DNA of 64,000 nucleotides from NCBI GenBank assembly GCA_964187785.1, contig OZ076409.1:8186001-8250000 (forward strand), read 5' to 3'. Position 1 is the stretch's first letter, and every line of letters begins with the position of its first letter. Origin of the DNA: Amphiscolops sp. MND2022 (Eukaryota). The notes beneath the pieces were generated by a model. The model made no database searches, was not told where the DNA came from, and saw nothing but the letters and a program-made list of their open reading frames with translations. Positions 21,100 through 64,000 of this stretch are shown here, one piece after another. The position numbers were made by a program, and so were the translations under genes.

Positions 21100-21896
21100 G
21101 GACGACTTCCGTTAGCGCATATACAATGTGTTACCTACCAAAAGTATGACCCTGTGACATTGTTAGTATTCGCTGCTTCCAAAACGCAATAACTTGCAGA
21201 AGGGATTTTGTTCTGCAAAACTTTTAGAATTGATTTCATTTAATTGTATGTGCCTTTAATGTTTACCAGAGACTGGTTGATGCGGTAACACTGACAGAGT
21301 TGCGAGAATAACAACAACAAAAAGGAGACGTCAAGGAAGAGCAACAGAGAAGTGTAAAGAATTTTATTCTGCATAGAGTAGGCAATCAAAACAACAATAA
21401 ACTAAAGTGTACATTATTATGTAAATGATTAATGCCGTTATTAGTGATATTCCCTGGATGAAGTTAAATGCAAATCTTTAAAGATTCTTGCCAATATCTT
21501 GCATTTGATGGCTATCTTGCAAGATTGTGGACCTAAATTCAAATCTTGCAAGATTTTTCAGAAGTATGCAAATCCTACAAGATATCTTACAAGATTCTTG
21601 AAAGAAAAACATTTTGCTGCAAATATCTGACTAAAAGAGTGTTATAGAATCCGGTCTCTACATCTCGTTTTTAGAGAGAAAGCAACTGAATATTGTATTG
21701 TTCTCGTGCCAATAATGAATATCAACTGGTGTCATATGAATTCAGAAAGCTACAATGGTATAAATGAAGAAACTGTCAAAATAACAAAAGTTGTTTACTA
21801 ATATAGACAATCAAATTAAAGTTTCGAGACAGCAAATTATCGAAAAGAGTATTTTAGTGGAAAACGGTATTTTAGTAATTTTTTACCAAAGACTCC

Positions 21897-21969
21897 GCCG
21901 GTTCTGAGAATCGAACTCTAGACCTTTGGAATAGAAACCGAACGCGCTAAGCTATTGTGCTAAAGTGCC
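21897..21969 (-). ncRNA. tRNA-derived Pol III A/B-box unit inside the LTR of B (also 30888-30960 and 31774-31846)
   Basis: GGCACTTTAGCACAATAGCTTAGCGCGTTCGGTTTCTATTCCAAAGGTCTAGAGTTCGATTCTCAG: A box, TCT at the anticodon position, B box. The acceptor stem does not pair. Confidence 0.7.
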
Positions 21970-22176
21970 TTGTTATTTGTTTATTTTAATCCAATCATAT
22001 TGTGTACACAACATCCTCCGGGCCCAAGAAGATGTGAATGCAAGAAACATTAGAATTGAAAAGGAAACTTTTTTTTCGGAAAACGGTTTACATGGATTTT
22101 CGATGATGTACATGTTACATTTTATTCATGTTAGGTACGATTACAAGCGAGAATAAAAACGGAGAGTTATTACAGA

Positions 22177-25100: not shown

Positions 25101-28100
25101 TGTTCAAAGATTGGCCCTGGAACCTTGCTGCGCCATTCAATACTCTGCGAACTTTGAAAGGTTTTTGCGGGTGCACTACAGGATGGTGTGGCAGGTACCA
25201 CTCGCGGGGTTGGTCTAAGTTGAAACAGTCGCTTTTGTCAACTTTGGTGATGTAACCTTTGTCGAAGTCGTCGTGAATTGTTTTGGCATAAAGTTGTTTC
25301 AATTCAGGATCTTTGTCGAGGCGACGTTCCAACGATTTTAGCTGCACGAGCGCGGAAAAGTAGTTATTCGGCAAACTACTGTCAGCTTCGGTCCACAACA
25401 TTCCCACATGGTATCGGTTACCATCGTGGTAAGTCGTTTCTTCAAGTATTTCCAACGCTCTCGCATCGGCAGCGGAACGCGAATCTACTTGCTTGTACGC
25501 TCCATACGATTCGATGTCGTACCAGCTTCGGAGTTGGTCGGCAAGTTCGGAGTCGAATTCCTTGTTAGAAGCAACAGCTTTAAAACAAGTTGAATAGAGA
25601 CCTGAGGACGAGGGGAGCGGTCCACTCAAAACCCAACCCAACGGTAAACGAACGGCAACTGGAGCATTTTTGCGGTCGGAATCAAAATACTCCAGCGGGC
25701 GGATCGAGTGGAAAACATCCTGACCTAGGATCATTTCAACATCGGCGTAGCTGTACTTTTTCAAAGAGATTGGTTGCAAATGGGGGTACTTTGTTTTCAA
25801 AAGTTCGACATCGATGGTGTCAGTTCCGACTTTGACGTCTTCTCTGACATACGGTTTAACAACAAAGGGAGAGCAAGAGCCACCCGAATGAACGGGTGTC
25901 AACTTAAGCTCCACCAGTTGCGTGTCTACGACTTGGTTGGAATTCATGCCATGGACAGTAAGCTTGGTCGGGGTGCCGTGTACGTTCAACTTCGTTGCCA
26001 GATTCGCTGAGATCCAGGAATGGCTGCAGGCAGAATCACACAGTTTTAGGACTTTTTCGCTTTTGCCGTTCGAGTGAAGTTCAACTTCCGTTACTTGTAA
26101 TAGGCCCTTGACTTCAGCAACGGAAGGCATGCCTGAGCTCTCGTCTGATCTTTCGTTTTTCACTGACGTTCCGATGCAACCAGATGTTTCAGCTTTGTCC
26201 GTGTTCACATCAGTGACTTTCTTGGCAAAAATTCTGTCGGCTCCGTGTAAGAAAGAGTTGTGTGAACTCCCGCATTCATCTTTAGTACACTTGCGGGGTT
26301 GCGGGCACTGGCGAAACGTGTGATTTTGATTGAAGCATGAAAAGCAAAGCTTGTTCTCAGCTACAAGTTTTGCTCTCTGTGTGGGAGATTTTCTTCTGAA
26401 TGCCGGACATCTCCACAAAGGATGTTTTTCTTTACAGGCGACGCAAGTGTTTGACGGTTTGTCGCTTTTACCTTTGGCGCTGACACTTTGTTGACTAGAC
26501 GTCGTAGCGGCGAAAACCTTAGAAGCAGTCTTGGTCTTAGTTACGGTCACGCTGTTACTTTCTTCAGGTTTCGCTTTGCTGGGTAGAGACTTCATGCGCT
26601 CATGCGCTTCGGCTTTGTCTTTAAGCCAGTCATTGAAGTCAATGAGTGTCGGTCTGTCCAAAATTCGCCTCACTGTGTGCAGCGACCATGCTTCTCTCAT
26701 GTTTGGCGGAAGCTTTTGAACGGCTTGTCCAAGCAATGACGCGCTCGAGAGATCTTGGACGTAGTTTAGAGATCGGAAGACCCCAACTAGAGAACAGATT
26801 GTTGCTGAGTAACTGATGATGCTCTCACTGTTGTGCATCTTCACGGGTGGAAAGTTTGCCAACTTATCCAGATAGGCAGTTACTACAGCCTGTGGCTGTC
26901 CAAACTTCCGTTCTAGTGCCTTTAGGGCGTCTCTATACATTGCTCCGCAGTAAGCAAATTCAGCGATAGCAGTTTTTGCTTTACCTGTAACAAGAGTCTT
27001 GAGGTATGTTAACTTGACGTCATCGGTGAGTGGGGCTGAGTCTATGGCACTTTTGAACTGGCCAAACCATTCATGCCATTGTATCGGGTCACCATTATAT
27101 TGTGCTAGTTTCCACTTTGGCAGATGGTCTTTCTTCGTTGAAGCTAACAACAAGGCAAGATCTTGTATCGTGAATCCGGTTGTACTTGGTTGCATAGTCG
27201 TTGACGTTCCGGCTGGCACAAAGGTAGCGGCTGTTGGACTAAGAGAAGTTGTGCTACTGTACTGTACACAATTGGCGTTGTAACTGTTGCTGGGGGTATA
27301 TAATAAACAGTTCCACCAGCGGTAACGGGTACGGTCGGAGCGGCATAGGTTGGCGCGTGAGCAAACGGCATGAAAGTAGGTGCCAACGGCTGTGTTGGGG
27401 GCGGAATCGTTGTTACAATCGGTGCGGTGGTGACAGTCGGGTTCGGGAAGGTCCATGCGGACAAGTTTGGGAGGATGTGGTTCACCGGCATTGTGAACGC
27501 GGGCATCCGTGCTGTCGTTTGTGACGGTAAAACTTGCGCATTGAAACTTCTAGTTTGGGTCGGGATGATTGTCGGTTGAACTTGTTGTTGTACTGTGACA
27601 TCCGAGGTTGAAGGTCCGATATTCCCAAAGTTTTGCGCTGTCAATGGGGGAGTCTGAATTTGTACCGCAGGAGTGTGATTTAAACTCATTGATGGAACGG
27701 TAGTTGTTGGTAGTTGTACTGCCACGTTTGTTTCATTGGGATCACCTGGTGCGAAAATCGGCTGAGAGACATTAACCGGAGGTTGCTGAGATGGAATCAA
27801 AGCGGTAGTATTTGCGGCAGAAGTCGCTAGACTTGCAGTCTCCGCTGTTACAGTCTCATGTTGAGTCGTGGTAACGATTGGCGAGTTGTTAACCCAGTCA
27901 CTAACTTGGCGCGTTTCGCTAGCGTCTGTTGTTCTGCTCAACCGCGAAAGAATCTCATGAGCATCTTCGTTAGCTTCAGATGGATCTTCTTGAAGTTCAA
28001 GTTCAATTAGATGCGCCTCTGCAAGTCGTTTGCGGTTCTCTTCTTGCAGTTGTTCAAGTTCCAGCTCTTGCTTTTGTTTAGCCAGTCGTAAAGCAGCTTC

Positions 28101-28577
28101 GTTTTGCCTTTCTACTTCTTCTCGCTTGTGTTTGGCAATAAGCAAGTCTCGTTGGCGCTGACTTGAAGTTTTCGACGCTTTGCTGCTTGAAACTTTGCTA
28201 GACTTAGTCTTCACGGTGGCAGCTTTGACTGAAGTTTGCGAAGAATTATCTGTTTTGGGACATTGATCGATATATTCCCTTGCGTTTCTAAAAATTTCAT
28301 CGTTTTGTATGCTCATGACGTTCAACCATTTTTCTAAGTCTGCTGTGACAGTTGCCGGGTCGTTGGTTTTCTTGGCAAGCTCGAGTAGCTGTTCGTTCTT
28401 AGCGAAAGCTTTAGTCATAGCTTCTTCGCAAGAAGTGACCAACCGTTCGACGCGGACGCGTCTATCGGCATTGGTTACTGCTTCTGTGACGTCGTTTTGA
28501 TATCTAATCAAGTCGGCTTCGGCTCTCGCGCGACTGTCATACAACTTTTGCAACTTTTCATGAATGGGGTCAGACAT
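22177..28577 (-). CDS. gag-pol: Gag-Pol polyprotein of B, broken by one 5-nt duplication near 27255-27265
   Basis: Starts MSDPIHEKLQK; coiled coil, Thr/Pro-rich linker, DUF1759, Cys/His knuckles, protease DSA, RT YMDD, Pao RNase H, HHCC and DDE integrase. ACTGT-ACTGT duplication lies at the frame switch. Confidence 0.93.
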
Positions 28578-28988
28578 TACGTTGTCAAAATTAGGGAATC
28601 GGGTTACTTTGCAGACGTCAACCAAACAATTAAGTTTGCACACAGTTCAGGAAAAAGTTTGGTGGCAGAAAGAACGGTGATTATCGGTGACAACACTGTT
28701 TCTACAGCGCTTCAACGAAGAAACTGGCAATTTTTTTGTTTTAAGTTAAAAGTAGTCACAGACTACGAGGACGGAACACGATAAACTCAAAGTCGCGTTG
28801 AAGAAACGCGGTGTCAGTTGACGATGGTGCGGGTGAGGGACGAAACGTTTTTTCAGAGTATCAACCAGTCAGTCAAGACTGGACACAACTCTGAAAAAAG
28901 AAGGAAGAGCTGAAGAAACTTCAACCGATCAGTGAAGTTCGGACACTGTCTCAACAGCTGGAAGGAGCGGGGGGGTTGTTAACTGAGA

Positions 28989-29597
28989 TTAAAAAGAGGC
29001 AGCGGCTCTCTTCGCAGCGTTACGGGCACGCTTACTTCGCCGTTTGGGTCGGCTCTTATCAGTTATTGAGGATAGTGCGTTCTCTTTACGGAGCAGAAAG
29101 TACAAATTTTTCAGTTCAAGCTCAGGGCTTTGATGCAAAGCTTTAAATTTTTTCAAAAGGTCGGCATCCTTCTGTTTTTTCGGAGAAATAAAGTCTTTGA
29201 CTATATTGAATACTTTGATATCAAGATCGGTTTCCAATGTTTTCAATGATTCAAAGATCTCGGGGGTACGAAAGCGGTGGCAATACACCAGAGCACTGAG
29301 TTTTTTCTGAATGCTTTTCAAAATTTCAATCATTTCGGACACTGATAATGCACAGAAGTTGTTACTATTATGACGAGAAATGCTGTTATTTAGGACATCA
29401 TGCCAAATAATAATGTTGTTTTTATCTTTCAGATCTTTCGAAAGCAAATTTTGGACAATTTTCTTCGGATTTTTCGTCAACGGATTAAGACTTAGGCCCG
29501 GGATGGTATAAATTTTGTCATTGAAATGTTCTTTTTCATCGGGAGTTAACGTTTCTATTGCATGGTGCAAAGAACTAGCAGCCAATATGAAAACCAT
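28989..29597 (-). CDS. ORF0 of B: 202-aa SGNH/GDSL-hydrolase-like protein with a basic tail
   Basis: Intact ATG ORF homologous to 59448-60089 and 62166-62702. Blocks FILAASSLHH, IPGLS, IIWHDVLNNSI and ALHQS. The fold is inferred by eye. Confidence 0.8.
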   Translation of the reverse strand: MVFILAASSLHHAIETLTPDEKEHFNDKIYTIPGLSLNPLTKNPKKIVQNLLSKDLKDKNNIIIWHDVLNNSISRHNSNNFCALSVSEMIEILKSIQKKLSALVYCHRFRTPEIFESLKTLETDLDIKVFNIVKDFISPKKQKDADLLKKFKALHQSPELELKNLYFLLRKENALSSITDKSRPKRRSKRARNAAKRAAASF

Positions 29598-30734
29598 ACG
29601 TGATTTGTTTACAACAATTTGCGCAAAATTGATTTTGTTTTCTCAAGATTTTTTCATTCGGCTACACGGATTATCAAAGGGCGGATACAACAATTTTTCA
29701 AACTGGAACAAGCTTACATGGAAAATTCGGGACAATTTTTTTTACAAGAAGCAAAAATGAAATTAGCATTCAGTTCTCCAACTTTTTTGCCGATTTTCAG
29801 TTGATAATTACGAATTGAACCTTTTTTTGAGTTCTCTTTGAAAGAAGAGTATCAAAATTTTGTGTCTTTTGGGAAATTGTTACTTTAATTTTTTTTTTCA
29901 ATCACCCTTTCCAAATTTCGTAAGAAACTGAAAGTTTTACATAACACAAAAAAGTGACTCGAATTTGACAAACTTCGCTGTCTCGAAGCTAGTAGCACAA
30001 TAATGTTTCTTCGGGTTATTGGTTTTTTCAAGAAACGCTTTGCAAAATAAATTAAAATTGAAGCGCAAAGCTTTTAAAGTTTTTTTTTCGGGTACTCACG
30101 ACCATGAATTCATCTTCGGGGGGTGGGTACATTCGGTGCTTCGGGTGGTTTATTCCGGGCTTCGGTGGAACCGATGATGAGGGTTCAGAGTTGACTGAAT
30201 ACTGAGGGTGAACATATGGAGGTAAATTTGGTAGGATTTGAGGACTCTTATCTTCAGTGACGATGCAAAATTACAACCAGAGTGACAACTTCTCAACGAA
30301 AATAACTCACTAAAGCTAATTTCGACATTTTCCAAGAGAAGATACTACCAAAGGTAAGTAGTTTTCTCAAAAGTAAGAGGTCCAGAAGTACTCATTGAAG
30401 AATTGCCCAGAACTGTTCTCATTCAGCAGCATTTTCCGTTCAACATTAAAGTGAATGTGTCAATTCAGTATTTGCAAAATATTGTTCTGTTACTGAAGAA
30501 ATTAGCCCAATAAGGGAGATGAAAGGTAGAAACAATGGAAAGTATTGGACTAAAACAACCAACAGGCGTCCAAAGAAAGTATCCGCCTTACCCAAAGAAG
30601 TCGTGCCTCTCTATGGCCACCATAAAAGAGTGTTATAGAATCCGGTCTCTACATCTCGTTTTTAGAGAGAAAGCAACTGAATATTGTATTGTTCTCGTGC
30701 CAATAATGAATATCAACTGGTGTCATATGAATTC

Positions 30735-32508
30735 AGAAAGCTACAATGGTATAAATGAAGAAACTGTCAAAATAACAAAAGTTGTTTACTAATAAAGACA
30801 ATCAAATTAAAGTTTCGAGACAGCAAATTATCGAAAAGAGTATTTTAGTGGAAAACGGTATTTTAGTAATTTTTTACCAAAGACTCCGCCGGTTCTGAGA
30901 ATCGAACTCTAGACCTTTGGAATAGAAACCGAACGCGCTAAGCTATTGTGCTAAAGTGCCTTGTTATTTGTTTATTTTAATCCAATCATATTGTGTACAC
31001 AACACTGACAATGCAAATCTTGCAAGATGATAAACTAGAATACCAGTCTTGCAAGAATCTTGCAAGACAATGCAAATCTTGCAAGACAACAAATGAGTTA
31101 TGATAACGTAGTCAACAGCTTCACCAATTGTCGAAAAAAGATTATTTTTCTCTTGTTTTTGCGTTTTTTTCCAAAAAATGTACGCCTATCATCAATTTAG
31201 GTTCGTTCGGCTTGATTTCGAAGTCTCCATCGTGTACGTGATAGAGGCTCATTTGTTTTCCAATGTACTTCATCAAAACTGAGTTTCAAATGTCAGTTTT
31301 TTTGCAAAAATTTGGCTTTCAGGGCGCATTACTAAAATCACAATTCTAGAGTTTTATTTTTTCTAGAGTTTGCATTTTTGGGTCCTTCACAATTTTAGAA
31401 GTGAGACTCTGGCTGTAATGGAGGTTGTCTTTGTAAATCGGATCCCTTAATTCCATGAATACTTTTGATTTGAAAATTCAATTCTTTCAAGATTCTTCGA
31501 GAAAATGTATATCTTGCAAGATTATCATTGAAAAAATGTTTATCTTGCAAGATTCTTGCAAGATGGCTTGAAGAAAAATGCATTTTCTTTAAAGATAAAA
31601 ATGTAAGAATCTTGCAAGATAGAAAGCGACAATGGTATAAATGAAGAAACTGTCAAAATAACAAAAGTTGTTTACTAATATAGACAATCAAATTAATGTT
31701 TCGAGACAGCAAATTATCGAAAAGAGTATTTTAGTGGAAAACGGTGTTTTAGTAATTTTTTACCAAAGACTCCGCCGGTTCTGAGAATCGAACTCTAGAC
31801 CTTTGGAATAGAAACCGAAGGCGCTAAGCTATTGTGCTAAAGTGCCTTGTTATTTGTTTATTTTAAACCAATCACATTGTGTACACAACACTGACAATGC
31901 AAATCTTGCAAGATGATAAACTAGAATACCAGTCTTGCAAGAATCTTGCAAGACAATGCAAATCTTGCAAGACAACAAATGAGTTATGATAACGTAGTCA
32001 ACAGCTTCACCAATTGTCGAAAAAAGATTATTTTTCTCTTGTTTTTGCGTTTTTTTCCAAAAAATGTACGCCTATCATCAATTTAGGTTCGTTCGGCTTG
32101 ATTTCGAAGTCTCCATCGTGTACGTGATAGAGGGTCATTTGTTTTCCAATGTACTTCATCAAAACTGAGTTTCAAATGTCAGTTTTTTTTTGCAAAAATT
32201 TGGCTTTCAGGGCGCATTACTAAAATCACAATTCTAGAGTTTTATTTTTTCTAGAGTTTGCATTTTTGGGTCCTTCACAATTTTAGAAGTGAGACTCTGG
32301 CTGTAATGGAGAGTGTCTTTATAAATCGGATCCCTTAATTCCATGAATACTTTTGATTTGAAAATTCAATTCTTTCAAGATTCTTCGAGAAAATGTATAT
32401 CTTGCAAGATTATCATTGAAAAAATGTTTATCTTGCAAGATTCTTGCAAGATGTCTTGAAGAAAAATGCATTTTCTTTAAAGATAAAAATGTAAGAATCT
32501 TGCAAGAT
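30735..32508. repeat. ~886-bp tandem duplication spanning the outer part of B's 5' LTR and its flank
   Basis: 30735-31620 is repeated at 31621-32508, including the LTR end and TSD. Confidence 0.95.
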
Positions 32509-33081
32509 ACGCATTTTTTTGGACTAGGGTTACCAATACGTAGTGTTCATACGGATACATGAAAACATGTTAATGAATACTGTAAAGTGAGGTGTTACAA
32601 AATCAAATACAAGCAGCTTGCGCATTGACCGAAATTAAACCGTAAACACACTGGCTGAAGTGTTGCCTCTAAGTATTGTCAAATTTAGTTGGATAACAAA
32701 CTGACTCATCAGAATCGAGCGCAGTTGAACGAATACAACTGAATGAATAGAGGTTCCAGGCACTCTATCAGGCAGCAAAGTTTTAGTGCAAAATGTGACC
32801 ATTTGACGTGTTACTTTGTTAATTTATCGATCGAAAATAGCCTGAGAAGATGATAGATGGTGAATTGCAGGAAAAGTTTCAATTTTAACACCTTCCAATG
32901 AACGTGTAGTTTTGAACCATTAAAATTTGAGTCTTCACCCCAAGCGGCATCTTGATATTTGTCAACAGATTAGCTGCCCCAGTCCCATAACCAGTCAGAT
33001 TTGTTAATTAGATAAAACCAATTTGTGCGAAAAATTCATCTTTGATGGAGTATCTGTTTCATCAATTTGTTAAATAGACTA

Positions 33082-34230: not shown

Positions 34231-35910
34231 TGTGATAATCCTCTCTTAAGGGTTCAGCGTCAGATTCTTCGTCAGAATGAATAGTCACATCTACATCAGA
34301 TTCAGCTCGAAACAATGGTTTCGCAGGATGCTTAAGGTCTTTCATCTTAGACGCTCTTAGAGGATAATCGTTGTTTTCAGAATCTGAGTTTTCATTATTA
34401 GATGCGTGAACTCTTATAGACGGGTCTATTCTGGATCCCGATGGTTGTGGTTCTTGTATTTCATATATATCAGATCTTGGGTTTGTTGCAATTGAAGTAT
34501 TTTTGTTGCATTTTATCTCTTTCAGAATTGCTTCTAGTTTACTATCCATTTCTTCTCTTATTCTCTCTATTCTTTCGGTATTTTTCTGCTCAACAATTTG
34601 TGTCCAAACTTGTATTTCATCACTAATTTGACTGGGTTCTCTTAGCTGGTTTTCCAAGTTTGGTTCACCTAAATTTTCTTGAACATTTAAGTTAGAATTA
34701 GTTAAAGTTATATTACCTGTTTCTGAAGAATCGATCCTAGTTTCGCTTGTTTCTCTCTCAGTAGATGGGGTTGCTAGTCTCCTCGATCTTCGACTTCTTT
34801 TATTTCCCATTTTGCTCAGTAGAAAACAAGTTATGTTTGCTGGGGAAGAATTTGAATTATGTTCTCAAATTGAAAATCCAAACTTGAAAGAGAACAATGA
34901 AGGCAGTGGAAATGTGGGTTAGAGCTTACAGGAATTGGATCAACTGCACTCGGTGAAAGTTATTTCAATTGTGTTTTTCTTACAAAATCCTTATTTTCAA
35001 AAATATAAAACAATGACAATCATTTTTGCGAGCATCATAGAATCCTGGAAAATCTAAAAATAGGATAACGTCAGATTGCGTAATTCTATTTATATCATCT
35101 CCATAATGACGTAAATGCTTCTAATCATCCTTAAACCCTAGGAAAATGCTGCAAAATGATATATTAAACATCGCAAATACTATCTGATACAGTATAATTG
35201 CATGACATTCAAAAACTGCACATTTAGCTGAAAACCGCATAACTCCGCATATACGTCAGCCTCGAAACCGTAGGGTGACGTATAACACACGTGAACATTT
35301 TCCTCACGTTTGCTTAGTATTGTATATACAGCACAACACGATCCGCATAATATTTGGTAGAAACCGTATGTTAACGTGTAATCGTCACTGCAAGAAACGC
35401 ATAGTGACGTATACTGCGAATGGTGAAATGGTATATTACCGCATACACTAATGATTCAAAACGTATGTTATCGCATATTCAAAAGCGTATAATGACGCAT
35501 ACTTGGAAATCATTTCACGCATAATGAAGTATATTCGTAAAGCTATTTCATGTATGATGACGCATCCTTATTAGTTGAAAAATGTCTAATGACGCATAAT
35601 CGCAATTCTAATTGTAGCATGATTACGCATAATGAAAGATCAAAAATCACAGATTTACCTTACTTATGTAGCTTTTAAGCACATGTTACTCTTATGAATG
35701 AATTTTAGATGAACTAGACGTCAATGAAAGGCTCAGAAAATATCTTAGAATGAAATTCATCCATGGAAATACACAAATAATTCCAAGACATTGTAGAATA
35801 ACATCAAAAAGGAGTTTCGAGAGAGTTTAAAATGTTTTATTGTTAAGTCTTTCCAGATGTTCCTTTTCATTGCTGCACCACGGAACCATCGTATCTCGAG
35901 GGATGCGACA
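34231..35910 (-). repeat. 3' LTR of the Gypsy element
   Basis: Direct repeat of 49193-50872. It includes a copy of the gag 5' end, which explains ORF 34166-34810. Confidence 0.97.
35235..35635 (+). repeat. Phased CGYAT-N5-CGYAT motif array in the LTR (second copy ~50197-50597)
   Basis: Examples: CGCATAGTGACGTAT, CGTATGTTATCGCAT, CGTATAATGACGCAT, mostly at ~32-bp spacing. Confidence 0.8.
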
Positions 35911-37754: not shown

Positions 37755-38150
37755 CGCCGCATAAACTGCACTCGTCTTTCCTCATGTTGGCGCATGTTTG
37801 TGAGTCACAATTACGTATGCCGCCGCATATTACTCACTTGTAGATCTGCATATTTACTCATACTTCCAGTTGCAAATCCGCATACTGCTGTGTATTGTCA
37901 ATCTGTAAACGCGCATAATCACTCATAATTACAATCGTGGATCCGCATGCTGTCGTATAATGTTCATCTGTAAATCCGCATAGTCACGCATAGTCACAAT
38001 TGTGAATCCGCGTGATGCTGCATATTGTTCATCTGTAAATCCGCATAATCACGTATGATTATTATAGTAGATCCGTATGTTGCTGCATGTTGAATACCAG
38101 TATTTCGCAGGTTACCGCATATACTAGTACAGTAATTCCGTAGGCTGTCG
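37755..38150 (+). repeat. CGYAT-N5-CGYAT array in the spacer between the divergent accessory genes
   Basis: TCCGCAT recurs every 32-33 bp (for example CCGCATAGTCACGCAT, CCGCATAATCACGTAT). Confidence 0.85.
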
Positions 38151-50872: not shown

Positions 50873-51520
50873 TAAGTATGTGCGCCAGGGTCAAGACCTG
50901 AAACTTGTCCTTAATTGTGCACTGATTCCTATAGTTTATTGGAGAATTTATCCATCGTTTGTCATTATGTCTATCATAATCCTTTCCTAAACTGGTCATT
51001 GAAGAAGAAAGGATGCGAAATCGGGACATGTACAGGAGGTTTTCTCTCCGACGTTACTTGAAGTGTGATCAAAAGGAAAGGTAGAAAGTTTTCCTGTTCT
51101 AGTATTTCCTGACTCCGAAAGACGCCGAGCTGAAGAAGGTGTGAAGTACACGTGCGGGATTTTCGCGCCTAATTTGAAGTATTTTTACCTGATGATGGAT
51201 TAGGTAAATACACAATTCCTTGTTACATTTGTAACGTTCAGTACTTTCATTTTGATTTGTTTTACAGGATTTTCTGATTTTATCTCAACTACATCTTACA
51301 TCCGAACTTTGAGAACGTTATATCCAGAATTAGGTACAAGTTAGATTTTTTATGAAAAACGGTTTACCTAGCACATTTTACAACATTTAAAAATTCTCCA
51401 AGAAACGTTATATCCGGTATACGTTTTATCCAGAATTCGTTATATCCAGTTTGCGTTAAATCCGGTATGTTGACAAGCAAGCTATAAAATTAAAAGCAAA
51501 TAGTAATCGTTCCGTTTCAA

Positions 51521-51590
51521 GGCATTTTGGCAAAAAGGATGCGCGCTAGCTTTCGAGGCAAAAGACCGTGGGTTCGATTCCCGGACACGT
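51521..51590 (+). ncRNA. tRNA-derived A/B-box unit in the LTR of D
   Basis: GGCATTTTGGCAAAAAGG...TTTCGA...GTGGGTTCGATTCCCGGACACG. Confidence 0.65.
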
Positions 51591-52539
51591 AAAAATAATT
51601 CAAATTTTAGAAAAATTCCTCAATTTCGGTAGAATAACCTTGAAAAAGGGCCTTGCTATTTAGGTTTACTGTTGTTTTTTGTTGACAAACATCAATTTGT
51701 TCTTTTTGCAGTCCTTTCATATTACTACTTACATTGTATGAATAATTTTGCAACCGTATATAGCCAAACTCAATTCAATATTTTTCGACTCTCAAAAACG
51801 ATCTAAAGAATCGCCAGCTATAGTTAATTCATGGTGGCCATAGAGAGGCAAACTTATTATCCACACTGGAAGATTCATCTTTCAACCGTATCATCTTTCA
51901 ACCGCTTCAACCGCTTCCGTGCTTAGTTACTAAAAAATTCCTACTTATAATTATAAATTCTTTGGTCTTCTGAAACTTGACTCAGACATTTGACCAATTC
52001 TGATACCAGCTAATTAACTCTAGCTTATTGGTTGTTACATAATCATGTTGTCGGGTTTACCAAATCAAACGAATGACGTCCGAACAGTCACCAAAAGGTA
52101 GTACTTTACCAGAATCGAACAAAGCCCAGAAGACAAGCAGCACTCAAAGTCCTCGGAACATAAAGAAGAATCATGAACATGAGTGAAACTGGAGTGTATC
52201 TTTAATAATACCTTACCCCCCACCGTAAACCCGAAAATGTCCCGCTGTCACAAACTGGCGTGCCCCAAAAAGTGCTCTGCTTGACGAAGGTGACCTGCAC
52301 CCTCCTTCGCTAAGTGAATCCCCGATGTAAAATCTTTTAGACCAAAGATTTGTATGAGAAGAAACGTCTATTCAACTTTTTCAATGAGAAAGCCAAACAA
52401 GAGAATCATTACCGCCAACTCAAAGTTTGATCACCAAATTACAAAAGAATATGACTCACTTTTTGATCTGAATAGCAAGGCCATTTCGAGAGTATTTTTA
52501 CCGAAATCGGAGAAATATTTCCAAAATATAAAATATTTT

Positions 52540-52608
52540 GCATGTCCGGGAATCGAACCCACGCCGGTCAAATACCGGCCTTGTACTCTACCGCTGAGCC
52601 AAGCTGCC
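52540..52608 (-). ncRNA. tRNA-derived A/B-box unit in the LTR of C (also 61048-61116)
   Basis: GGCAGCTTGGCTCAGCGGTAGAGTACAAGGCCGGTATTTGACCGGCGTGGGTTCGATTCCCGGACATGC: consensus A box TGGCTCAGCGG and B box GGTTCGATTCC, followed by TTTT. Confidence 0.8.
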
Positions 52609-52816
52609 TTATAATTTGTTTGTTTTAAATTAACGATATTTGTATTGCTATCGCAACATCCTCCGGGCCCAAGAAGATGAAGAATGTTAAAATGTCAAAA
52701 ACAAACTTTTTTCTCGATTTTATTTTCATATTTTCCATAATCAGTTTGGAATGAAAATTCATGATACATATTTTGAAGATACATGTGGTTCAAAAGTTAA
52801 GTACAATTAAAATGGA

Positions 52817-55800
52817 TTATGATAAATCAATTAAATCAGGGGAAGGAAGGACTGGGGCTAGTTTCACGACCGGACGGACAAGGTTTCCAGACGTGGTTTT
52901 AACTTCGGCAGAGCGAGCGACAGCATCGCTGCCAAAATGGAGTTTGATGACACGTGCGAGAGGGTAGTAGCCTCTCGGGTTAGTGGGTTCTACAATCCAA
53001 ACGAGATCTCCGGTTTTCAATTGCCTGTTGGACTGTGTGCACCACTTTGAGCGACGATTCAAAGTCGGCACGTACTCTTTAAGCCACCTGTTCCAGATAG
53101 CGTCAGAATAAGCTTGGGCGCGTGCATATCGCTTGCGGTGGTCAAAATCACAGTTAGCATGGGACGGTAGAGACGATCCAGCTGTTCCAAGCAAGAAGTG
53201 GTTAGGTGTCAAAGCATCCAAGTCGGTTGCATCTGCGCTTGCTGGAATCAGCGGACGAGCGTTGAGGCTCTGCTCCACAAGACAAAACACCGTTGTTAGT
53301 ATTTCCTCTGTCAAGCGACGGTTGCCGAGTATCGCATAGAAAGTATGCTTAAAACTTCTCACTAGCCTTTCCCAGACACCGCCATGGTGTGGAGCACTAG
53401 GAGGATTAAACTTCCAGCTGACACCTTTCTTTACCATAGACTCAGCAATTGACTGTTGATTCCACTTGAGAACGTTCTGGAGGAGTTCTTTCTCTGACGC
53501 AACAAAATTAGTCCCATTGTCTGACAAGATAACAGAAGGGATGCCCCTACGGGAAACAAATCTCTCAATTCCCATGACGCAACTGCTAGTGTCCATTGAT
53601 GGCACAACTTCGAAATGGACAGCGCGAGTTGTAAGACATGTGAAGAGAAATCCCCACCGCTTCTCTGTGGAGCGTTTAACGGAGACGTAGAAGGGGCCAA
53701 AGTAGTCTAAGCCAGTATTTGTAAAGGGTCGCGATGAAAAGGCCAAGCGTTCTTTTGGTAGATCGGCCATAATCGGGGTCAGCGTTTCCGCTTTACGTTT
53801 GCGACATGTTACGCATCTGGTTTGAATCGTTCTCAATGTCGTTCGCAGTTTGACAATGGCAAACTTCTGTTGTATCAAGGCTCTCAAGTACTCTACGCCT
53901 TGATGGTAGTGCTTCTCATGAAGATGTTCTAAAAATAAACGAACTGCGGGGTGCCGGCTATCGAGTAAAATAGGGTGTTTGACGTCAAAGTTGGCAATTT
54001 CCAGATGTTTTGTTCGACCTTGAGCACGGAGAAGGCCGTTTGGACCGATAAAGGGGGAGAAATCTTTTATAACTGAAGGCTTGCTCAATGAACAAGTCTT
54101 CAGCAGATTTTTTGTTTCGTTCGGGAACGTTTCGGACTGTACCAAGAAGAACAATTTTTGTTCAGCACTTTCAAGCTCGACAGGATCAGTAATTGCTCCT
54201 GTTTTAGTTCTGTTACCAGAGAATCTCGGCAAAATACGCAAAATGAATGCAGCAATGCGCAAAAGTTTCTCGTACGAGCTGTACCTTTGCCATTCGAGAG
54301 TTAGGACATTAGGAGTTACACTTGCGGTATTTGCTGTTGTCTCTTGGTAGACTGAGTCGGCGTTAATTTTATTGGAATCATAGTTTTTCAATTTATTTTT
54401 CAAGATCTCTTCCGTCGGCTGAAAAGGCCAATCAGGAGTCATCAAGAACTTGGGACCTTTGAGCCAAGAACTGTCAAAAAGGGATTTTGCCGGCAGACCG
54501 CGCGTGCCCGCGTCTGCCGGGTTGTCGGCTGTTGGCACGTGGTTCCATTCATCAACTGTCGTCAACTCAAGAACTTCGGCAACTCTATTGGCGACAAATA
54601 CGGGTTTTTTGTCAATGGAATGGAGCCATTGGAGCACAGTTGTACTATCGGTCCACATGAACGTTCGCTCAACAGGTACCGTGAGTGCTTGTTGAACTTC
54701 ATCCTTTAGTCGGGCTGCTAAGAGTGCGGCTTGGAGTTCCAATTTCGGTATTGTGAGCGCTTTCATCGGGGCAACACGAGCTTTCCCAAAGACAAGGGCT
54801 AACTGGGTTTCAGTCCTCTCGTTGCGGCTCACTCGCGCACGGAGGAAAGCAACAGCGGCAAAGACATCTTGAGAGCTGTCGCCGAAAACGTGTAACTCAA
54901 CACTTCTCATGGTTCCACGAAAATAACATCTCGGAATGGTTATTTCGCTCAAATTGGGAAGCTCTGCGGCCCATTCAAGAAACTTTTTGCTAACGTTGTC
55001 AGGCAGATTGTTGTCCCATTGTTGCCCACTCAGGCGCCAAATGTCTTTCAACAAAAGGCGGGCTGTTACAGTATATGGTGCCGCAAGACCAATGGGATCA
55101 TAAACCGCGGACACTAAACTAAGGACAACACGCTGTGTTACTGGTCGATTCAAGTCAGGTGTAGTTCCTCTGCTGACAACCAAGGTGTCACGACTATGGT
55201 TCCATTTCAAACCCAAAACATGAAAAGTGTCTTCATCTGTTTCTAAGACTTTCTCGTTCGATTCGGCAGGCAGTTGATATTTGGGGTCGACGATTTTCAC
55301 CAATCCTGGAACATTACTGACAAACTTGGTTAGGTTGAAACCACCTTTGGCTAACATTTCGACAAGATCTTGAGCCTTCTTGGTTGCTTCGTTGATGGTG
55401 GGGCTTGATTCAAGATAATCGTCCATGTAAAAATTGTTTTCGACACTGTTGGTGGCTTCAAGAAATTGGATTCGGTTGTCACGAGCAGTCTGTTGCAAAG
55501 CGTAGTTGGCACACGTTGGCGAATCCTTCGAACCGAAGATGTGACGTACGTATTGGTACACAGCGACGTCTGTTGCAGGGTCCTCCCGCCACAGAAAACG
55601 AAGAGACGGTCGGTCTTCGGGGATCACACCAACTTGTAAAAACATTCCCTCGATGTCAGCGGATACAGCATAGGGATGTTGTCGGAATCGCATGAGCACA
55701 TGGATTAACGTTTGCAACAAGTCAGGACCAGTTAAAAGTGTGCTGTTCAGTGAAACACCATGAAATTTCGCTGCACCATTGAGTACACGGCGTACTTTTC

Positions 55801-58800
55801 CTGGCTTGTGAGGGTGGATCACTGGGTGGTGCGGTAGATACCACTCACGCGGGTTGTCAACTCTGAAACAGTCTGACTTGTCGACTTGAACGATGTATCC
55901 CTTGTCGAAGTCGTCCTTAATGGTCTGAGCGTAACTCGCTTTCTGTTCAGGAGTTTTTTCGAGTCGGCGTTCAAGGGATTTCAATTGCACTAAGGCTGAA
56001 AAGTAGTTGTTCGGGAGACTACTCTCGTCATCAGCCCACAACATACCGACCTGATATCGGCATCCGTCATGATATGTTGTTTCTTGCAAAATTTTCGACG
56101 CTCTAGCATCGTCAGCAGAGCGCGGGTCTATTTGTTTCATTGCAGCAAACGACTCCATTTCATACCAACTCCGAAGTTGATCGGCCAACTTGGAGTCAGT
56201 CTCGCTTTGCGTGACAGCTTTGAAGCAAGTCGAGACGAGTCCTGTAGTCGAAAGTAATGGTCCACTCAAAACCCAACCCAACGGTAATTGGACGGCAATT
56301 GGGGTATTTTTTCGGTCGGATTCAAAATACTCCAACGGGCGGATTGAGTGGAACACGTCTTGACCCAGTATCATTTCGACCTCTCCATAACTGTACTTGC
56401 TCAGAGCGACGGGCTCCAAATGAGGGTACTGTTGCTTCAATTGGTCAACATCAATGACATCGTTTCCAACATGCAAGTTTTTTTCTGACGTAAGGTTTGA
56501 CATCAAAGGTAGAGCAAGAGCCACCCGAATGAACAGGTGTCAACTTAAGCTCAACTATTTGAGTGTCAACAACTTGTTGAGAATTGATGCCATGAACAGT
56601 TAGTTTGGTCGGTAAGCCCTTTACGTTCAACTTGGTTGCGAGATCTTCGGAGATCCAAGAGTGACTGCAGGCTGAGTCACACAGTGCCATTACCTTGGCG
56701 GATTTAGTCGAAGTGTGAACTTCAACTTCAGTAATTTGGAGCAGTCCTTTCACATCGGTCACGGAACAGACTCCGGAGCTCTCTCCAGCTTTATTCACAG
56801 TTGTTTTGAGGCTACGCGATCCAGTTTCTTGGTTACTGGACGATTTCGGTGTCGTTTTTGGTTGGAAAACTCTCTCTGCGCCATGTAGCAGGGTGTTATG
56901 AGAGCTGTTACATCCATCTTTGTTGCACTTGCGTGGTTGTGGACATTGTCGGAAAGAATGGTTTCCTTTCAGGCAGGAGAAACAAAGTTTGTTTTCGGCA
57001 ACAATCTTTGCTCTGTCGGTCGGCGTTTTATCAAGGAACACGCGACAGCGCCACAGTGGATGGTAATCCTTGCACACGTTACAGTTTAATTGCATTTGAT
57101 TCGGTTTAGTTCTGGATTCTTTTGAAGATGCGCTAGAACTTGTTGCGGCAAAAACTTTCGTACCAGTCTTTGTTCGAGTAACTGATTGCGTACTTTCATC
57201 GCTCTTGGGCTTTGTGGTTGAGATTTTCATCCTCTCATGTGCTTCGGCTTTATCTTTCAACCATTCGTTAAAATTCCAAGAGGGTTGGTCGGCTCCAATC
57301 TTTCTTGACAGTGTGCATAGACCAAGCTTCCCTCATGTTTGGGGGTAGTTTCTGCACGGCTTGACCCAATAAGGCTGCACTTGACAAATCGTGTTCGTAT
57401 TTCAGCGAACGGAACACGCCAACCATAGCGGAAATTGTTGCAGAAAATGCTATCACATTCTCGCTGTTATGCATTTTCAATGGAGGGAAGCTATTCAGTT
57501 TGTCAAGATGAGCAGACACAACTGCCTGTGGTTGACCAAATTTCCGCTCGAGCGTCTTCAGTGCGTCTTGGTACATAGTCCCACAGTATGCAAATTCCAC
57601 AATTGCTGCCTTCGCTTTGCCTGTCACAAGCGTTTTTAAATACGTCAGCTTAACATCATTCGAGAGTGGTGCGGAGTCGATAGCACTCCTAAACTGACCT
57701 ATCCACTCGTGCCACTGCAATGGGTCTCCGCTATATTGCTCTAGTTTCCACTCAGGAAGATGGTCTTTTTTGGCAGCAGTCAGTAACTGCGCAAGGTCTT
57801 GGACAGCAACTGGAGTTAGCGTTGAAGGGGGAACGGTCGACTGGACTGTAGTCGGAAACGTTGAAACTGGAAAATTCGCGGCGGCTGCTGTAGTCTGTTG
57901 AATTGGTAAAGTTGTTGTTGGAAATGTTGTCGCAAGAGGGTTACAGTAGAAGGTTGTTCCTCCACTTTGGATTGGTACAACTGGTGTGAAAATCCCGCTT
58001 GTGGTCACTATTGGTGTTGTAGTTGTGCTCGTTAACGTAACTGGTCCTCTTACAGGCTGCGGAACTGTAGCATGTACTGTGGGGAGGTTACTCGGAGCCG
58101 GAAATGTCCAAGCAGACACGTTCGGTATGACATGGCTCGTTGGAATGTTGACTTGAGTCATTGTCGTAGTAGGAGTGACAGAGCGTTGTACTGGCGGGTA
58201 CATAGTCACTGGTACCGTCGCGGAGGAAACAGTATTCGTTGTAGTGTTCGCGGGTAGCGTACTGGTTAGCCTCGGATTGGTAGGAACAGACGAAATTCCG
58301 AATGAGGGACTCTGGTTTTGTCCCTGGTTTTCTCCCAGTCCAATATTGAAATTAGCTGACGATCTCATCGGTAGCATTGCTTGTTTCGTTTGAACAACAT
58401 TGGTTGAGTCGGTAATGACTGTGGGAGTGGACGATCCAGCGACATTGTTCAGATCAACGGTATTGGTCTGCAGTTGATTTGAAACATTGTCGGGTTCATT
58501 GACTTCATTGACCCAGTTGGACACTCTCAGTGACGTGGTTTGCTTGGAGTGATTACTAATCTGAGAGAGTGTATCATGAAGTTCGTCAGACGCCTGAGAA
58601 AAGTCGTCTGTCAACTCCAACTCAGTGAGCTTGGCTTCGGCAAGTTTTCGTCTATTTTCTTCTTCCAGTTCTTGTAATTGGAGAGCTTGTTCTTCTTCCA
58701 AACGCTCTCTTTCGCGTTCCAATTGTTTTCGTGCTACCTCTTGTTTCTGTTTAGCCAAACGAATGGCATTTGCATTTTGTCGTTCTAGTTCTTCTCGACG

Positions 58801-59247
58801 TTGGGTCGCCATAAGGAGATCCCTTTGTCTTTGACTAGACGTTTTTGTTTTGACAGAAGTTGATGATCTTCTGGAGGTGCTTTTATGGACAGTGCCGATT
58901 GATGGGTTGGAATTTACATCGGATCCAGTGCAACTGTCGATGTACTCACGAGCTTTTCTTAACACTTCGTCATTTTGCTCAGTGACTTCGCTAAACCACT
59001 TTTCTAAGTCGGCTTGAACTGTTTCCGAGTCAGATGTTTTAGATGCAAGCGTTTTCAACTGTTCGTTTTTGTTGAAAGCCTTCGTCATTGTATCTTCGGT
59101 TTCTTTAACAAGACGTTCGACTCGAACCCTTCGATCTCGACTTGTAATGGAATCGAGTATCTTTTGTTGAAGAGTAATCAAGTCAGTCTGTGCCTTTAGT
59201 CGGTTTTCGTGAAGTTTTTGAACCTTGTCTTGTTGCGAATCTGTCAT
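52817..59247 (-). CDS. gag-pol: Gag-Pol of C, with two single-base homopolymer frameshifts (~57270, ~56480)
   Basis: Three consecutive ORFs collinear with the B polyprotein: DUF1759, knuckles, DSA protease, YMDD, RNase H and DDE integrase. Confidence 0.93.
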
Positions 59248-59447
59248 TTTGTCTGTTTTGATTTTGTTTAGATTAAAAAAGGATAGTCGCGGAGCATGTT
59301 GCGGTTAGTTGAAAGATTAAGAAAAAGAAATCAACAAAACACGTTACTGTTTTCGAGAGAGTCCCTTCTGAGCATCAACCGAGCAGTGAAGCTCGGACAC
59401 AGCACAGAAAGGAAGGAAGGAAGCGGGTTGCAGCGTCAACCGGTCAG

Positions 59448-60089
59448 TTAAGTCCGGACGCGGCTACAACACGAAAAGTGGGTTAGTTTACTCGCTGGCA
59501 GCAGATAACGTGTTTTTAACGCCTTGCGGGCGCGTTTCGAATGACGTTTGGGGCGACTACGGGCAGTAATTTGAGACAAATCATCTTCATGTTTCAAAAT
59601 TGTATGCAAATGTTTCAATTCCAGATCGGGGCTCTGATGTAGTGCCTTCAAATTTTGCAAATAGTCTGAATCTTTTTGCTTTCGCAATGAAATGAGGTCT
59701 TTTCCAATACTCAAGACTAGGATGTTAGTTTTCTGCAATTCGGCAAAAATGTCTGGCGTTCGGTCACGTTGGCAGTACACTAGAGCCCTGATCCTGTTTT
59801 GATATGATTTCAATACTTCAATTAAAGTTGGAACGGGAAGAGCACGATAAAAGTTACTCTTGTGCTTGCAAATAGTATTGTTTATAACATCATGCCAAAT
59901 TATTAGGTCTTTTTCGTCTTTGAAATCGTTTTCAATCAAGTTCTGAACTACTTTTTTAGGATTTTTTGCGTTAATGTTCAAGCTCAGGCCCGGTATGGAA
60001 TAAACTTTTTCTTTTAGAGCGTTTTGATTTTCGGGGTTAATAGTTTCTATTGCATGATGCAACGAACTAGCAGCTAATATGAAAACCAT
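59448..60089 (-). CDS. ORF0 of C: 213-aa SGNH-like protein
   Basis: Intact homolog of 28989-29597 (MVFILAASSLHHAIET, IIWHDVINNTI, ALHQSP, RSRPKRHSKRARK). Confidence 0.8.
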   Translation of the reverse strand: MVFILAASSLHHAIETINPENQNALKEKVYSIPGLSLNINAKNPKKVVQNLIENDFKDEKDLIIWHDVINNTICKHKSNFYRALPVPTLIEVLKSYQNRIRALVYCQRDRTPDIFAELQKTNILVLSIGKDLISLRKQKDSDYLQNLKALHQSPDLELKHLHTILKHEDDLSQITARSRPKRHSKRARKALKTRYLLPASKLTHFSCCSRVRT

Positions 60090-60810: not shown

Positions 60811-61300
60811 TGAAAGCCTCTCAATGGCCATCATGTAAAATCTTTTTGACCAAAGATTTGTATGAGAAGAAACGTCTATTCAACTTTTTCAATGAGAAAG
60901 CCAAACAAGAGAATCATTACCGCCAACTCAAAGTTTGATCACCAAATTACAAAAGAATATGACTCACTTTTTGATCTGAATAGCAAGGCCATTTCGAGAG
61001 TATTTTTACCGAAATCGGAGAAATATTTCCAAAATATAAAAAATTTTGCATGTCCGGGAATCGAACCCACGCCGGTCAAATACCGGCCTTGTACTCTACC
61101 GCTGAGCCAAGCTGCCTTATAATTTGTTTGTTTTAAATTAACGATATTTGTATTGCTGCCGCAACACCCGAAGCCCCGACAACACCGCCGAATCCCCGAA
61201 GGTAGAATCCGAAACCTTGTGCCCCGAACCCCGTAAATCACCACTCAAACCCGACTACTACAAAAACTAGTTTTGTAACCAGAACCGCATATCCGGTAAA

Positions 61301-62165: not shown

Positions 62166-62760
62166 ATGGAATTTATTGTAGCGGCAAGTTCCGTTGTCCA
62201 TGCCCTTGACACCGTAAACCCTGAAAGCCGAAAAAACTTTAACGAGAAAATTTTTTCAATTCCGGGCCTGAGGCTTAGTCCTTACACAAAAAATCCGGGA
62301 CAAATAGTGCAAATTTTGCTCTCCAAAGACTTAGATGAAAAAAACGACATTGTTATTTGGCACGATGTGCTGAATAATAGCATTTCTAAACACGAGAGCA
62401 ACAATTATCGAGCTTTAACAGTCCTCCAATCGTTAGAGATTTTGAAATCAATTGAAGACAAACTCCGGGCACTGGTGTACTGCCACCGATTTCCTACACC
62501 GAACGTTTATCAAAACTTGAAAGATTTAGAAAAATCCACGAACAACAAAGTGTTTAAAATTGTTGAACACTTCATTTCGCCAAGGAAAAAGAAAGATCCT
62601 GAGGATCTCACAACACTTAAGGCGTTACACCAGAGCACCGAAATTGAGTTAAAACACGTTAACTTTATTCTGCGCAAGGAGAGCGAGCTTGACGCTAAGT
62701 AGGACGCCATGCGGCCTAGTAAGTCCGCCCAAAGGCTATCAAGAGCGCAGCTGCCGTCTC
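62166..62760 (+). pseudogene. ORF0 homolog of D (SGNH-like), stop before the basic tail
   Basis: MEFIVAASSVVHAL..IVIWHDVLNNSISKH..ALHQS; stop at 62700-62702. Confidence 0.8.
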
Positions 62761-63329
62761 TGCTTCGTCCTAGACCCCCTCCATCCGTCTTTACAGTACT
62801 GTAGTTACGGTGTCCGGACTTCATTGTCTGGTTGAAGTTCCTACAGTAGTTAATCCGTCTTCTTGGGTTGTGTCCGGACTTAATTTTCCGGTTGATACTC
62901 AGAAGTCCACTCCCCGTCTTTACTCCTGCCGTTTAGACAGTGTCCAGACTTTATTGTCTGGTTGAAGTTCTATCGGCCTTCTTCAGCCCTTTGGGCATTC
63001 AGTATTGGACGAACCGTATTGGGAAGTGAATGTTTTTAAATCGCTGTCTAGTCCCATGTAACTTCCTCCCGTGTCTTGTAACTACTTTTAAAAAACAAAA
63101 AATCGTAAAATTTCTCCATCGTTGCTGTTTTTGTGAGATACAGTTTCCATCAACTCCACACCGTTACCGTCGACCGACATCTTTCTTCGTTCAGCTCTGT
63201 TTAAGCTTAATTGCTTGGTTGACGCTATCGAAGAGATCATTCCTCTATCTATTCTATCTATCTTGTTTAACTCATTTCTCGCTACCTTAATTCATTTCTA
63301 ACAGAAGTTCACGACAGAAAAATCAACAC

Positions 63330-64000
63330 TAGGCAAGACAAAGTTATAAAACGTTTTGAAAGCCGTGCCAAAGCCGACACCGAGTTACAGAGGTTGCAAG
63401 AGAAAGTTTGCAAGAAAACCACATAGACTGAGGATCGACCGAGTTGAGAAGGAACAAACACTTCGCGTTGAACAGTTAGAAGAAGAAAATCGAAAGAATC
63501 TAGCTGAAGCAACACTCACCGAGCTTGAACTGACTGAAGACTTGTCGGACTCTCAATCGGAGTTTCTAGACACCGTTTCACAACTAGGCGCTTCGACTAA
63601 AGCTGACGATAATGTCTGAGTCAGAGAGTTGGTTAACAATTCACCCGTTGCTACTGCAAGTGATCCCACAAAAACTGTAATTTTGGAACCGAACGCCGTT
63701 ATCTTCGCTACTACAGCACAAAATTTAGTCAACAGAAGAGCGCCTACAACAGCACCAACACCTTGCTTCCCAGTAGTGACTCTTGTAGCCCCTCCAACCG
63801 CACCAACGACTAAGAACATGCCACTAGCTACGGGACAAGGTTCAATAGTTTACCTACCATCTACTGGCCCGGTTCAAGGTTCCCAATCGACCACAACGCC
63901 TCAGGGGACAAATGCTCCATCGGTAACTGCAATAGCATCGGCCCCTTTGGCGACCGCCACGTCATTTTCAATTTCAACAGTCACCTTTCCTAAAAGTAAT
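63330..64000 (+). pseudogene. Internally deleted gag N-terminus of D
   Basis: QDKVIKRFESRAKADTEL.. jumps to EQLEEENRKNLAEATLTELELTED, homologous to B and C Gag; contains stops. Confidence 0.8.

Follow-up and report, generated by a model that had tools for sequence, protein, structure and literature searches.

A conserved accessory gene with a predicted SGNH fold precedes gag in nested Bel/Pao retrotransposons of Amphiscolops

The window considered in this study, 64,000 nucleotides of contig OZ076409.1 from Amphiscolops sp. MND2022 (positions 8,186,001 to 8,250,000), is a cluster of nested LTR elements. A preliminary description of this DNA had drawn attention to a stand-alone open reading frame before gag in a Bel/Pao lineage. 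Frames of this kind, which I will call ORF0, are indeed found where it placed them, inside LTRs and in company with genes carrying Pao-type Pfam domains. The main features are as follows, with positions counted from the first letter of the window.

21632-31004, minus strand: element A, bounded by an LTR pair and a 5-bp target duplication
30623..31004, minus strand: 5' LTR of element A
30606..30622, minus strand: primer-binding-site-like motif of element A, directly after the 5' LTR
28989..29597, minus strand: ORF0 of element A, 202 aa, with a predicted SGNH-fold core (about 1-177) and an Arg/Lys tail
27144..28577, minus strand: N-terminal part of gag of element A, with frame changes ahead of the capsid region
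[quoted passage not shown]
21632..22013, minus strand: 3' LTR of element A
52326-61166, minus strand: element B, laid out like element A, with an ORF0-gag spacer of 200 nt
60834..61166, minus strand: 5' LTR of element B, with a primer-site-like motif immediately after it
59448..60089, minus strand: ORF0 of element B, 213 aa, its tail extended across the first hairpin
52817..59247, minus strand: gag-pol of element B, in three ORFs (57268-59247, 56451-57230 and 52817-56503)
52326..52658, minus strand: 3' LTR of element B
51469..51848, plus strand: probable 5' LTR (51469-51831, with only an approximate start) and primer site of element C
62166..62702, plus strand: ORF0 of element C, 178 aa, with an early stop
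63398..63655, plus strand: decayed gag remnant of element C

Element A is a young Bel/Pao element, the two LTRs of which are 99.7% identical over 382 bp. After the 5' LTR and the primer-site motif comes a leader of 1025 nt (to 29598) that contains 13 ATGs, then ORF0 (29597-28989), a 411-nt spacer, gag (ATG at 28577) and pol. The LTR pair of element B (52326-52658 and 60834-61166) is 98.8% identical. In both elements gag-pol is broken by frame changes, the sites of which differ between the two. The order of Pfam matches along gag-pol is DUF1759, Asp_protease_2 (weak), RVT_1, Peptidase_A17, Integrase_H2C2, rve (in B) and DUF5641, and it is the matches to Peptidase_A17, DUF1759 and DUF5641, found in both elements, that mark each gag-pol as Bel/Pao. 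The LTRs, the target duplication, the primer site and the order protease, RT, RNase H, integrase are likewise those of the group.

Element B is inserted in the leader of element C (the target duplication is at 52321-52325 and 61167-61171), and the LTR and primer site of C therefore lie some 10 kb from its ORF0. A fourth and more distant Bel/Pao, element D (131-7260; 30-45% to the pol of A), is without ORF0: the three copies described here are all that a profile of 95 relatives detects in the window.

Several other features of the window deserve mention. The LTRs at 30623-31004, 60834-61166 and 51469-51831 have in common a tRNA-like stretch near the 5' end, containing a B-box-like motif. The stretch may be a Pol III-type promoter; it was flagged neither by ARAGORN, which found no tRNA, nor by Rfam. 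An 888-bp tandem duplication (30735-32509, 98%) includes some of element A's 5' LTR, and a second, of 1642 bp, lies at 12852-16136 (99.5% identical). There is a perfect palindrome of 160 bp at 10663-10822. A Gypsy-type element (34231-50872) has LTRs of 1680 bp (99.7%) that hold the 5' part of gag, and its extra ORFs (35867-36895 and 38704-42981) gave no useful Pfam match.

All three copies of ORF0 sit between gag and an LTR with its primer-binding site, and to that extent three families keep the ORF, as had been claimed. The third copy needs a correction, being on the plus strand and ending at an early TAG ahead of the basic tail (homology carries on to 62747). ORF0-B and ORF0-C are respectively 58% and 60% identical to ORF0-A. 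Among the three pairs, pS is 0.74-0.75 and pN 0.23-0.29, giving pN/pS ratios of 0.31-0.39 (bootstrap 0.23-0.50). The ratio is thus well away from 1, in keeping with the conservation at the protein level that had been asserted. A corrected dN/dS, 0.10, can be given for the pair A-B, the other two pairs being synonymously saturated beyond correction. Since synonymous sites are near saturation while pN is low, ORF0 is under purifying selection. Between A and B, pN is 0.19 for pol, 0.30 for the N-terminus of gag and 0.25 for ORF0 (pS 0.74-0.81), and the leaders of the two elements no longer align with each other. ORF0 has thus diverged in step with gag and pol and has evolved with the element, under constraint, since the families split. 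I consider it practically certain that ORF0 is a real gene of the element, conserved in these Bel/Pao elements as an accessory to gag and pol.

A read-through fusion of ORF0 to gag was considered and rejected: the in-frame spacer of A has four stops, and in B, with 842 nt from one ATG to the other, the two frames are out of register, which leaves no common read-through into gag. Nor were splice-like signals common to A and B found. The 13 ATGs that ribosomes would have to pass in the leader of A before reaching ORF0 count against the model favored below. The protein has a pI of 9.8 with its tail (8.5-9.1 for the core) and no transmembrane segment (maximum 19-residue hydropathy 1.06).

The ORF had been described as resembling SGNH/GDSL hydrolases, a suggestion that structure prediction bears out. 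The AlphaFold2 model of ORF0 has a pLDDT of 85.7 when built with 34 sequences and of 95.4 (pTM 0.87) with 95. Compared with 48,161 chains, the model reaches a best Z of 11.7 (rmsd 3.7, 159 residues aligned), and its SGNH-type matches have rmsd values of 2.9-3.7 over 148-159 aligned residues, with identities of 10-13%. Most of the best 50 matches are titled GDSL/SGNH, carbohydrate esterase, PAF-AH or O-acetyltransferase; the remaining entries are presumably SGNH folds too. The best match by Foldseek is 3p94 (E 3.4e-4, TM 0.50), and a feature search of the Atlas returned, as a lead only, clusters with Lipase_GDSL_2 on 21-30% of their members. The structural scores are moderate (Z 11-12), and on the strength of the model I am highly confident that ORF0 has an SGNH fold. 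Sequence profiles give no sign of it: none of the three copies in the window matches a GDSL/SGNH profile of Pfam, no SGNH family is among the 25 listed of 47 Pfam families that match the 95 ORF0 members, and a sequence search of the PDB found no match. Pfam matches to TPR_ZFYVE26, KaiA_N and PADRE were set aside as below cut-off or weak. The ZfL2-1 structure (4C1B) is not among the 50 structure matches listed, which counts neither way.

The residues of the presumptive active site were followed through 95 sequences of the ORF0 family, most of which are 28-51% identical to ORF0-A. The preliminary description had aligned LAASSLHH, IPG, IWHDVLNN and ALHQS with the SGNH blocks by eye, and the alignment holds. 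Ser8 of block I (kept in 89 of 92), close upon a predicted strand (3-6) and at the start of a helix (8-15), is the likely nucleophile, an assignment that draws on the motif and on secondary structure rather than on superposition. Gly34 of block II is kept in 89/95, and His155 of block V in 89/94. In block III, N70 is kept in 80/95 (with Ser in 13) and N71 in 86/95, the Gly of GxN being replaced; H66, four residues ahead of N70, is kept in 91/95. C106, the likely equivalent of the transposon-specific S228 in ZfL2-1 by a register drawn from spacing, is Cys in 64/95. The Arg/Lys tail that had been noted is general as well: 81 of the 95 have at least nine Lys/Arg among their final 35 residues.

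What does not hold is the pair of aspartates. The middle position of the GDS motif is Ala in 86/92 members, not Asp, and the place of the catalytic Asp in block V (position 152) is occupied by Asp or Glu in 2/95 only, a loss that the earlier alignment had passed over. With both missing family-wide, the name "esterase" is not assured. There is precedent for doing without: according to the available excerpts of PMC10792757, the acid is an Asp in 23 of 30 SGNH structures, and in several structures a main-chain oxygen stands in for it. By that analogy catalysis may still be possible, and the loss of Asp bars ORF0 from the canonical GDSL lipases, not from the SGNH superfamily. Other candidates for the acid role, to go by their conservation, are Asp67 (86/93) and Glu161 (86/95). 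I think it probable that the active site is still in use. ORF0 is, as modelled, a stand-alone family of the SGNH fold that lacks Asp at both places.

Past the end of ORF0 lies a second feature that the preliminary description did not mention, a motif of 24 nt that is predicted to fold as a hairpin with a 6-bp stem and a U-rich loop of six bases:

28921..28944, minus strand: hairpin A1, in the ORF0-gag spacer
28861..28884, minus strand: hairpin A2, in the ORF0-gag spacer
28618..28641, minus strand: hairpin A3, just ahead of the gag ATG
59436..59459, minus strand: hairpin B1
59375..59398, minus strand: hairpin B2
62812..63222, plus strand: hairpins C1-C4 (at 62812, 62872, 62942 and 63199)

The nine copies in the 64 kb are all in the three ORF0-gag spacers (three in A, two in B, four in C), and element D, which lacks ORF0, has none. 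The pattern was drawn from seven of the nine, and the chance figure (0.01) is therefore circular for those seven; the two copies found with mismatches still pair. In an extended model, which adds a 5x5 internal loop and a 9-bp outer stem, 83.7% of 135 cells are paired, compared with 30-42% in slid controls. The copies covary: both sides are altered in 31 cells and at 10 of the 15 pairs, counts that are inflated by the relatedness of the nine copies and are not to be read as probabilities. Folding of the spacers gives z values of -2.8 and -3.9. Beyond the nine copies the model turns up no strong site in the window, the runner-up being at E 0.011, and Rfam has no match at gathering score in the window or in seven loci outside it, nor any in 50900-64000 at E<=1. 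I judge it very probable that the hairpins form as RNA.

Similar hairpins may follow ORF0 elsewhere. The strict 24-nt pattern occurs at none of 20 loci outside the window. A model built from the window hairpins alone matches one LINE locus (L003, 1030-1077) 41 nt past ORF0 (E 0.0075). Its best match among the loci (L006, 4182-4225; E 7e-6) lies inside RT coding sequence, is without the inner hairpin and is probably due to chance; the hairpins in the spacers of L006 and L002 it misses. A relaxed loop pattern, chosen after the loci had been viewed and applied with approximate ORF0 ends for broken copies, gives 19 matches in 4675 nt after ORF0 as against 2 in 4227 nt upstream; coding sequence has 1 in 5100 nt, and shuffles lead one to expect 2.15. 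The 19 include seven in the window, one overlap (L006), a duplicate pair (L010/L014) and two that are AT-rich (L004). Of 13 loci with downstream sequence, 8 have the relaxed pattern and 5 have none. In the 200 nt past ORF0, 10 of 16 sequences fold with z<=-2, as do none of 16 coding controls. Tandem repeats of other hairpins follow ORF0 in L005 and L012, and loop sequences differ among the LINE loci. The sharing with LINEs is thus partial, with weaker look-alikes in some of them.

The loci just mentioned belong to a large family. Of 567 candidate homologues of ORF0, 255 match at E<=0.001, and the family comprises 815 clusters at 50% identity. One member, P0340, is 48% identical to ORF0-A and stands for a 90% cluster of 432 sequences; it is sister to the group of L001 and L002 and represents an element of very high copy number. 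Close relatives are free-standing, beginning at the equivalent of Met1 in 114 of 117, and no longer fused form was found among 8000 candidates, which is weak evidence. A metagenome scan with ORF0 yielded 18 loci from 62 candidates, where an earlier metagenome scan (51 candidates) and a scan of genome contigs (37 candidates) confirmed none. Among the 18, an APE endonuclease ORF lies downstream in five (in three of these with RT), a PHD-like ORF1 in three more, an LTR end with primer site lies ahead in two, and GIY-YIG/PIF1 genes lie ahead in two. The contexts are these (L004, L009, L010 and L015 are left out of the classes):

L003, L006, L008: ORF0 relative, separate ORF1 of 300 aa that has a Cys-rich finger at its N-terminus, and then APE endonuclease-RT
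L005, L011: ORF0 relative, ORF1, start of the endonuclease
L012, L013, L014: ORF0 relative and PHD-like ORF1 (L012 by near-identity to L013)
L007: broken ORF0 relative and an endonuclease-like piece, recognized by eye only
L001, L002: ORF0 relative about 600 nt past what looks like an LTR end and a primer-site motif identical to that of element D; the contigs stop before any gag
L016 (2-3986): Helitron-like PIF1 helicase fused to a GIY-YIG nuclease, then a divergent SGNH-family member on the same strand
L017 (2-1766): divergent SGNH-family member after the end of a GIY-YIG gene, on the same strand

L001 (676-703) and L002 (661-691) also have in common a short hairpin 90-120 nt before the start of ORF0. 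Two marginal matches in viral contigs (L019 and L020, E 1e-3) and a 19-residue match among bacterial-looking genes (L018) were treated as chance, and the L003 ORF, when run against the Atlas, brought up no match with a usable name.

In a tree of 39 rows, from which L007, L010 and L011 were omitted as partial or near-duplicate, the three copies of the window form one clade (support 100/99). A single clade of LINE-linked ORFs is not rejected by this tree (p-AU 0.43), and the LTR-linked groups are joined at 80/70 only; a quick tree of 115 rows spreads the LINE-linked ORFs over several deep branches. The backbone is weak, and the direction of transfer between element classes is not to be read from it. 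The occurrence of relatives ahead of LINE genes and beside Helitron-like ones, which the preliminary description missed, makes it likely that ORF0 is an accessory cassette and that mobile elements of very different kinds have exchanged it.

What might such a cassette do? The reading I favor is modeled, by analogy, on the esterase of the ZfL2-1 LINE, for which the available excerpts of PMC3905857 (Schneider et al. 2013; PDB 4C1B) describe a slow enzyme that binds liposomes, with an arginine-rich motif proposed to bind structured RNA as the lambda N peptide does. ORF0 would be made as a small, soluble, free-standing protein of the SGNH fold. Its Arg/Lys tail would grip the predicted hairpins just past its own stop codon, while the core, with Ser and His and without the usual Asp, would bind or slowly hydrolyse acyl groups at membranes. 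The element's RNA would so be tethered to membranes, where the RNA-protein particle would be assembled or moved, and ORF0 and its hairpins would travel between element classes as one cassette. All of this, from catalysis without Asp and the grip of the tail on RNA to the tethering at membranes and the joint movement as a cassette, is inference, as was the membrane, lipid or RNP role in the preliminary description. The whole model, an accessory SGNH-fold protein that keeps a Ser-His or lipid site, holds its own RNA and brings it to membranes, comes to my mind close to an even chance but short of it. That ORF0 binds the hairpins at all is possible, with the balance tilting somewhat further the other way; the same excerpts report that the isolated ZfL2-1 esterase does not bind oligo-A RNA, which counts against this part. 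A bolder version, which I think rather unlikely, would make ORF0 and hairpins a portable switch of protein and RNA site built on an esterase fold, comparable to lambda N/boxB or Rev/RRE, exchanged among LINEs, Bel/Pao and Helitron-like elements of one animal group and controlling the translation, localisation or packaging of its carrier.

The main rival accepts ORF0 as a real accessory esterase or deacylase and gives the hairpins to the next gene or to the genome: they would serve re-initiation or internal entry at gag/ORF1, or packaging and dimerisation read by Gag, without binding ORF0. Packaging hairpins ahead of gag are usual in LTR elements. Hairpins A3 and C4 are near the start of gag, which has to be translated with a long leader and an entire ORF ahead of it and no common read-through, and the variability of loop sequence among LINE loci fits such a role as well. 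Against this, element D is a Bel/Pao that lacks ORF0 and has no such hairpin, and LINEs have no Gag, yet some have look-alike hairpins past ORF0. I regard this rival as a real possibility, if a minority one.

The protein itself might instead be a catalytically dead SGNH fold, RNA-binding or regulatory only, like the OSK domain of Oskar, which excerpts of PMC10792757 describe as an RNA-binding non-enzyme. Loss of both motif aspartates, the basic core and tail, and the presence of OSK (5a4a, Z 8.4) among the structure matches all speak for this. [quoted passage not shown] Finally, ORF0 might be carried along neutrally, having come, say, from a piece of a LINE inserted into the leader of a Bel/Pao. 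Its relatives are LINE genes, copy C stops early, and the gag-pol of A and B is itself broken; a passenger would nevertheless hardly have diverged in step with gag and pol while the leaders became unalignable, the window holds no LINE ORF1/ORF2 remnants, and the three copies are one strongly supported clade. This last alternative is highly improbable.

Why SGNH domains have repeatedly been picked up by many classes of transposon is an open question. The sole biochemical model found, the ZfL2-1 esterase, was, according to the excerpts available, studied without its arginine-rich motif. ORF0 is small and stands alone, still bears its basic tail and has a candidate RNA target beside it, which makes it possible to test catalysis and the binding of lipid and of RNA one at a time. 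Its family of 815 clusters is not flagged as SGNH by Pfam, among the families listed, and neither of its gene layouts (ORF0-gag-pol in Bel/Pao; esterase ORF, PHD-type ORF1 and ORF2 in LINEs) was found described.

SGNH cargo is already known in other transposons, as the preliminary description mentioned; for the position of ORF0 in Bel/Pao it knew of no report, and none was found in the literature searched. The listed titles and opening lines of abstracts name neither a Bel/Pao with an SGNH ORF (Repbase, GyDB, subscription journals and supplements may contain one) nor a LINE in which an esterase ORF of its own precedes a PHD-type ORF1. The words esterase, lipase, hydrolase and upstream are absent from the available portion of a survey of metazoan Bel/Pao (PMC3118150), as are esterase, SGNH, GDSL and lipase from that of a 2026 survey of envelope-carrying retrotransposons (PMC13524379). 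The ICTV profile for Bel/Pao (PMC8742986) names only gag, pol and env. In other respects, with LTRs of 333-382 bp, a primer site, a Pao-type gag-pol and lengths of 8.8-9.4 kb, the elements are like Belpaoviridae.

Among the known carriers, excerpts of PMC4021074 report Texim SGNH genes in fish Helitrons, and those of PMC9210276 an SGNH ORF in amphibian Ngaro elements. Both are SGNH cargo in further classes of transposon, and L016 and L017 resemble the Helitron case; the Texim genes have introns, and the Ngaro ORF comes after the recombinase. The OSK domain (PDB 5A4A) has the SGNH fold in common with ORF0 and, in the excerpts of PMC10792757 and PMC7250577, provides a precedent for RNA binding by that fold; it is a germ-line domain of the host that has lost its triad, whereas ORF0 keeps Ser and His. 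The GDSL ORF3 of bdelloid Vesta LTR retrotransposons and of Athena/Terminon elements (Rodriguez et al. 2017, PMC5408684, in excerpt) is like ORF0 a stand-alone SGNH ORF in an LTR retrotransposon, common to unrelated retroelement classes of one host group. As far as the excerpts go, ORF3 is additional to gag and pol and, to judge from its number, downstream of them; it belongs to lineages specific to rotifers and has its invariant residues intact, whereas ORF0 lies ahead of gag in Bel/Pao, with hairpins downstream.

The closest comparison is with ZfL2-1, one of the CR1/L2/RTEX/Penelope ORF1 proteins in which excerpts of PMC3905857 and PMC4120745 describe an SGNH esterase. Both have the fold upstream of a polymerase gene, together with an arginine-rich segment (common descent is not implied), and both have the transposon-specific His four residues before the oxyanion Asn (H66/N70 in ORF0, H191/N195 in ZfL2-1). 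The spacing of blocks III and V is equal, as tabulated in the available part of PMC10792757, and a vertebrate L2 esterase has the same top structure match as ORF0, 3p94, according to excerpts of PMC4120745. In the ZfL2-1 type, however, the domain is within ORF1, behind a coiled coil, and has the full Asp-His-Ser triad, whereas ORF0 forms an ORF of its own, begins with the first strand of the fold and lacks both Asp. Its basic segment, unlike that of ZfL2-1, is C-terminal, and the ORF stands ahead of gag in an LTR element and, in LINEs, ahead of a separate PHD-type ORF1.
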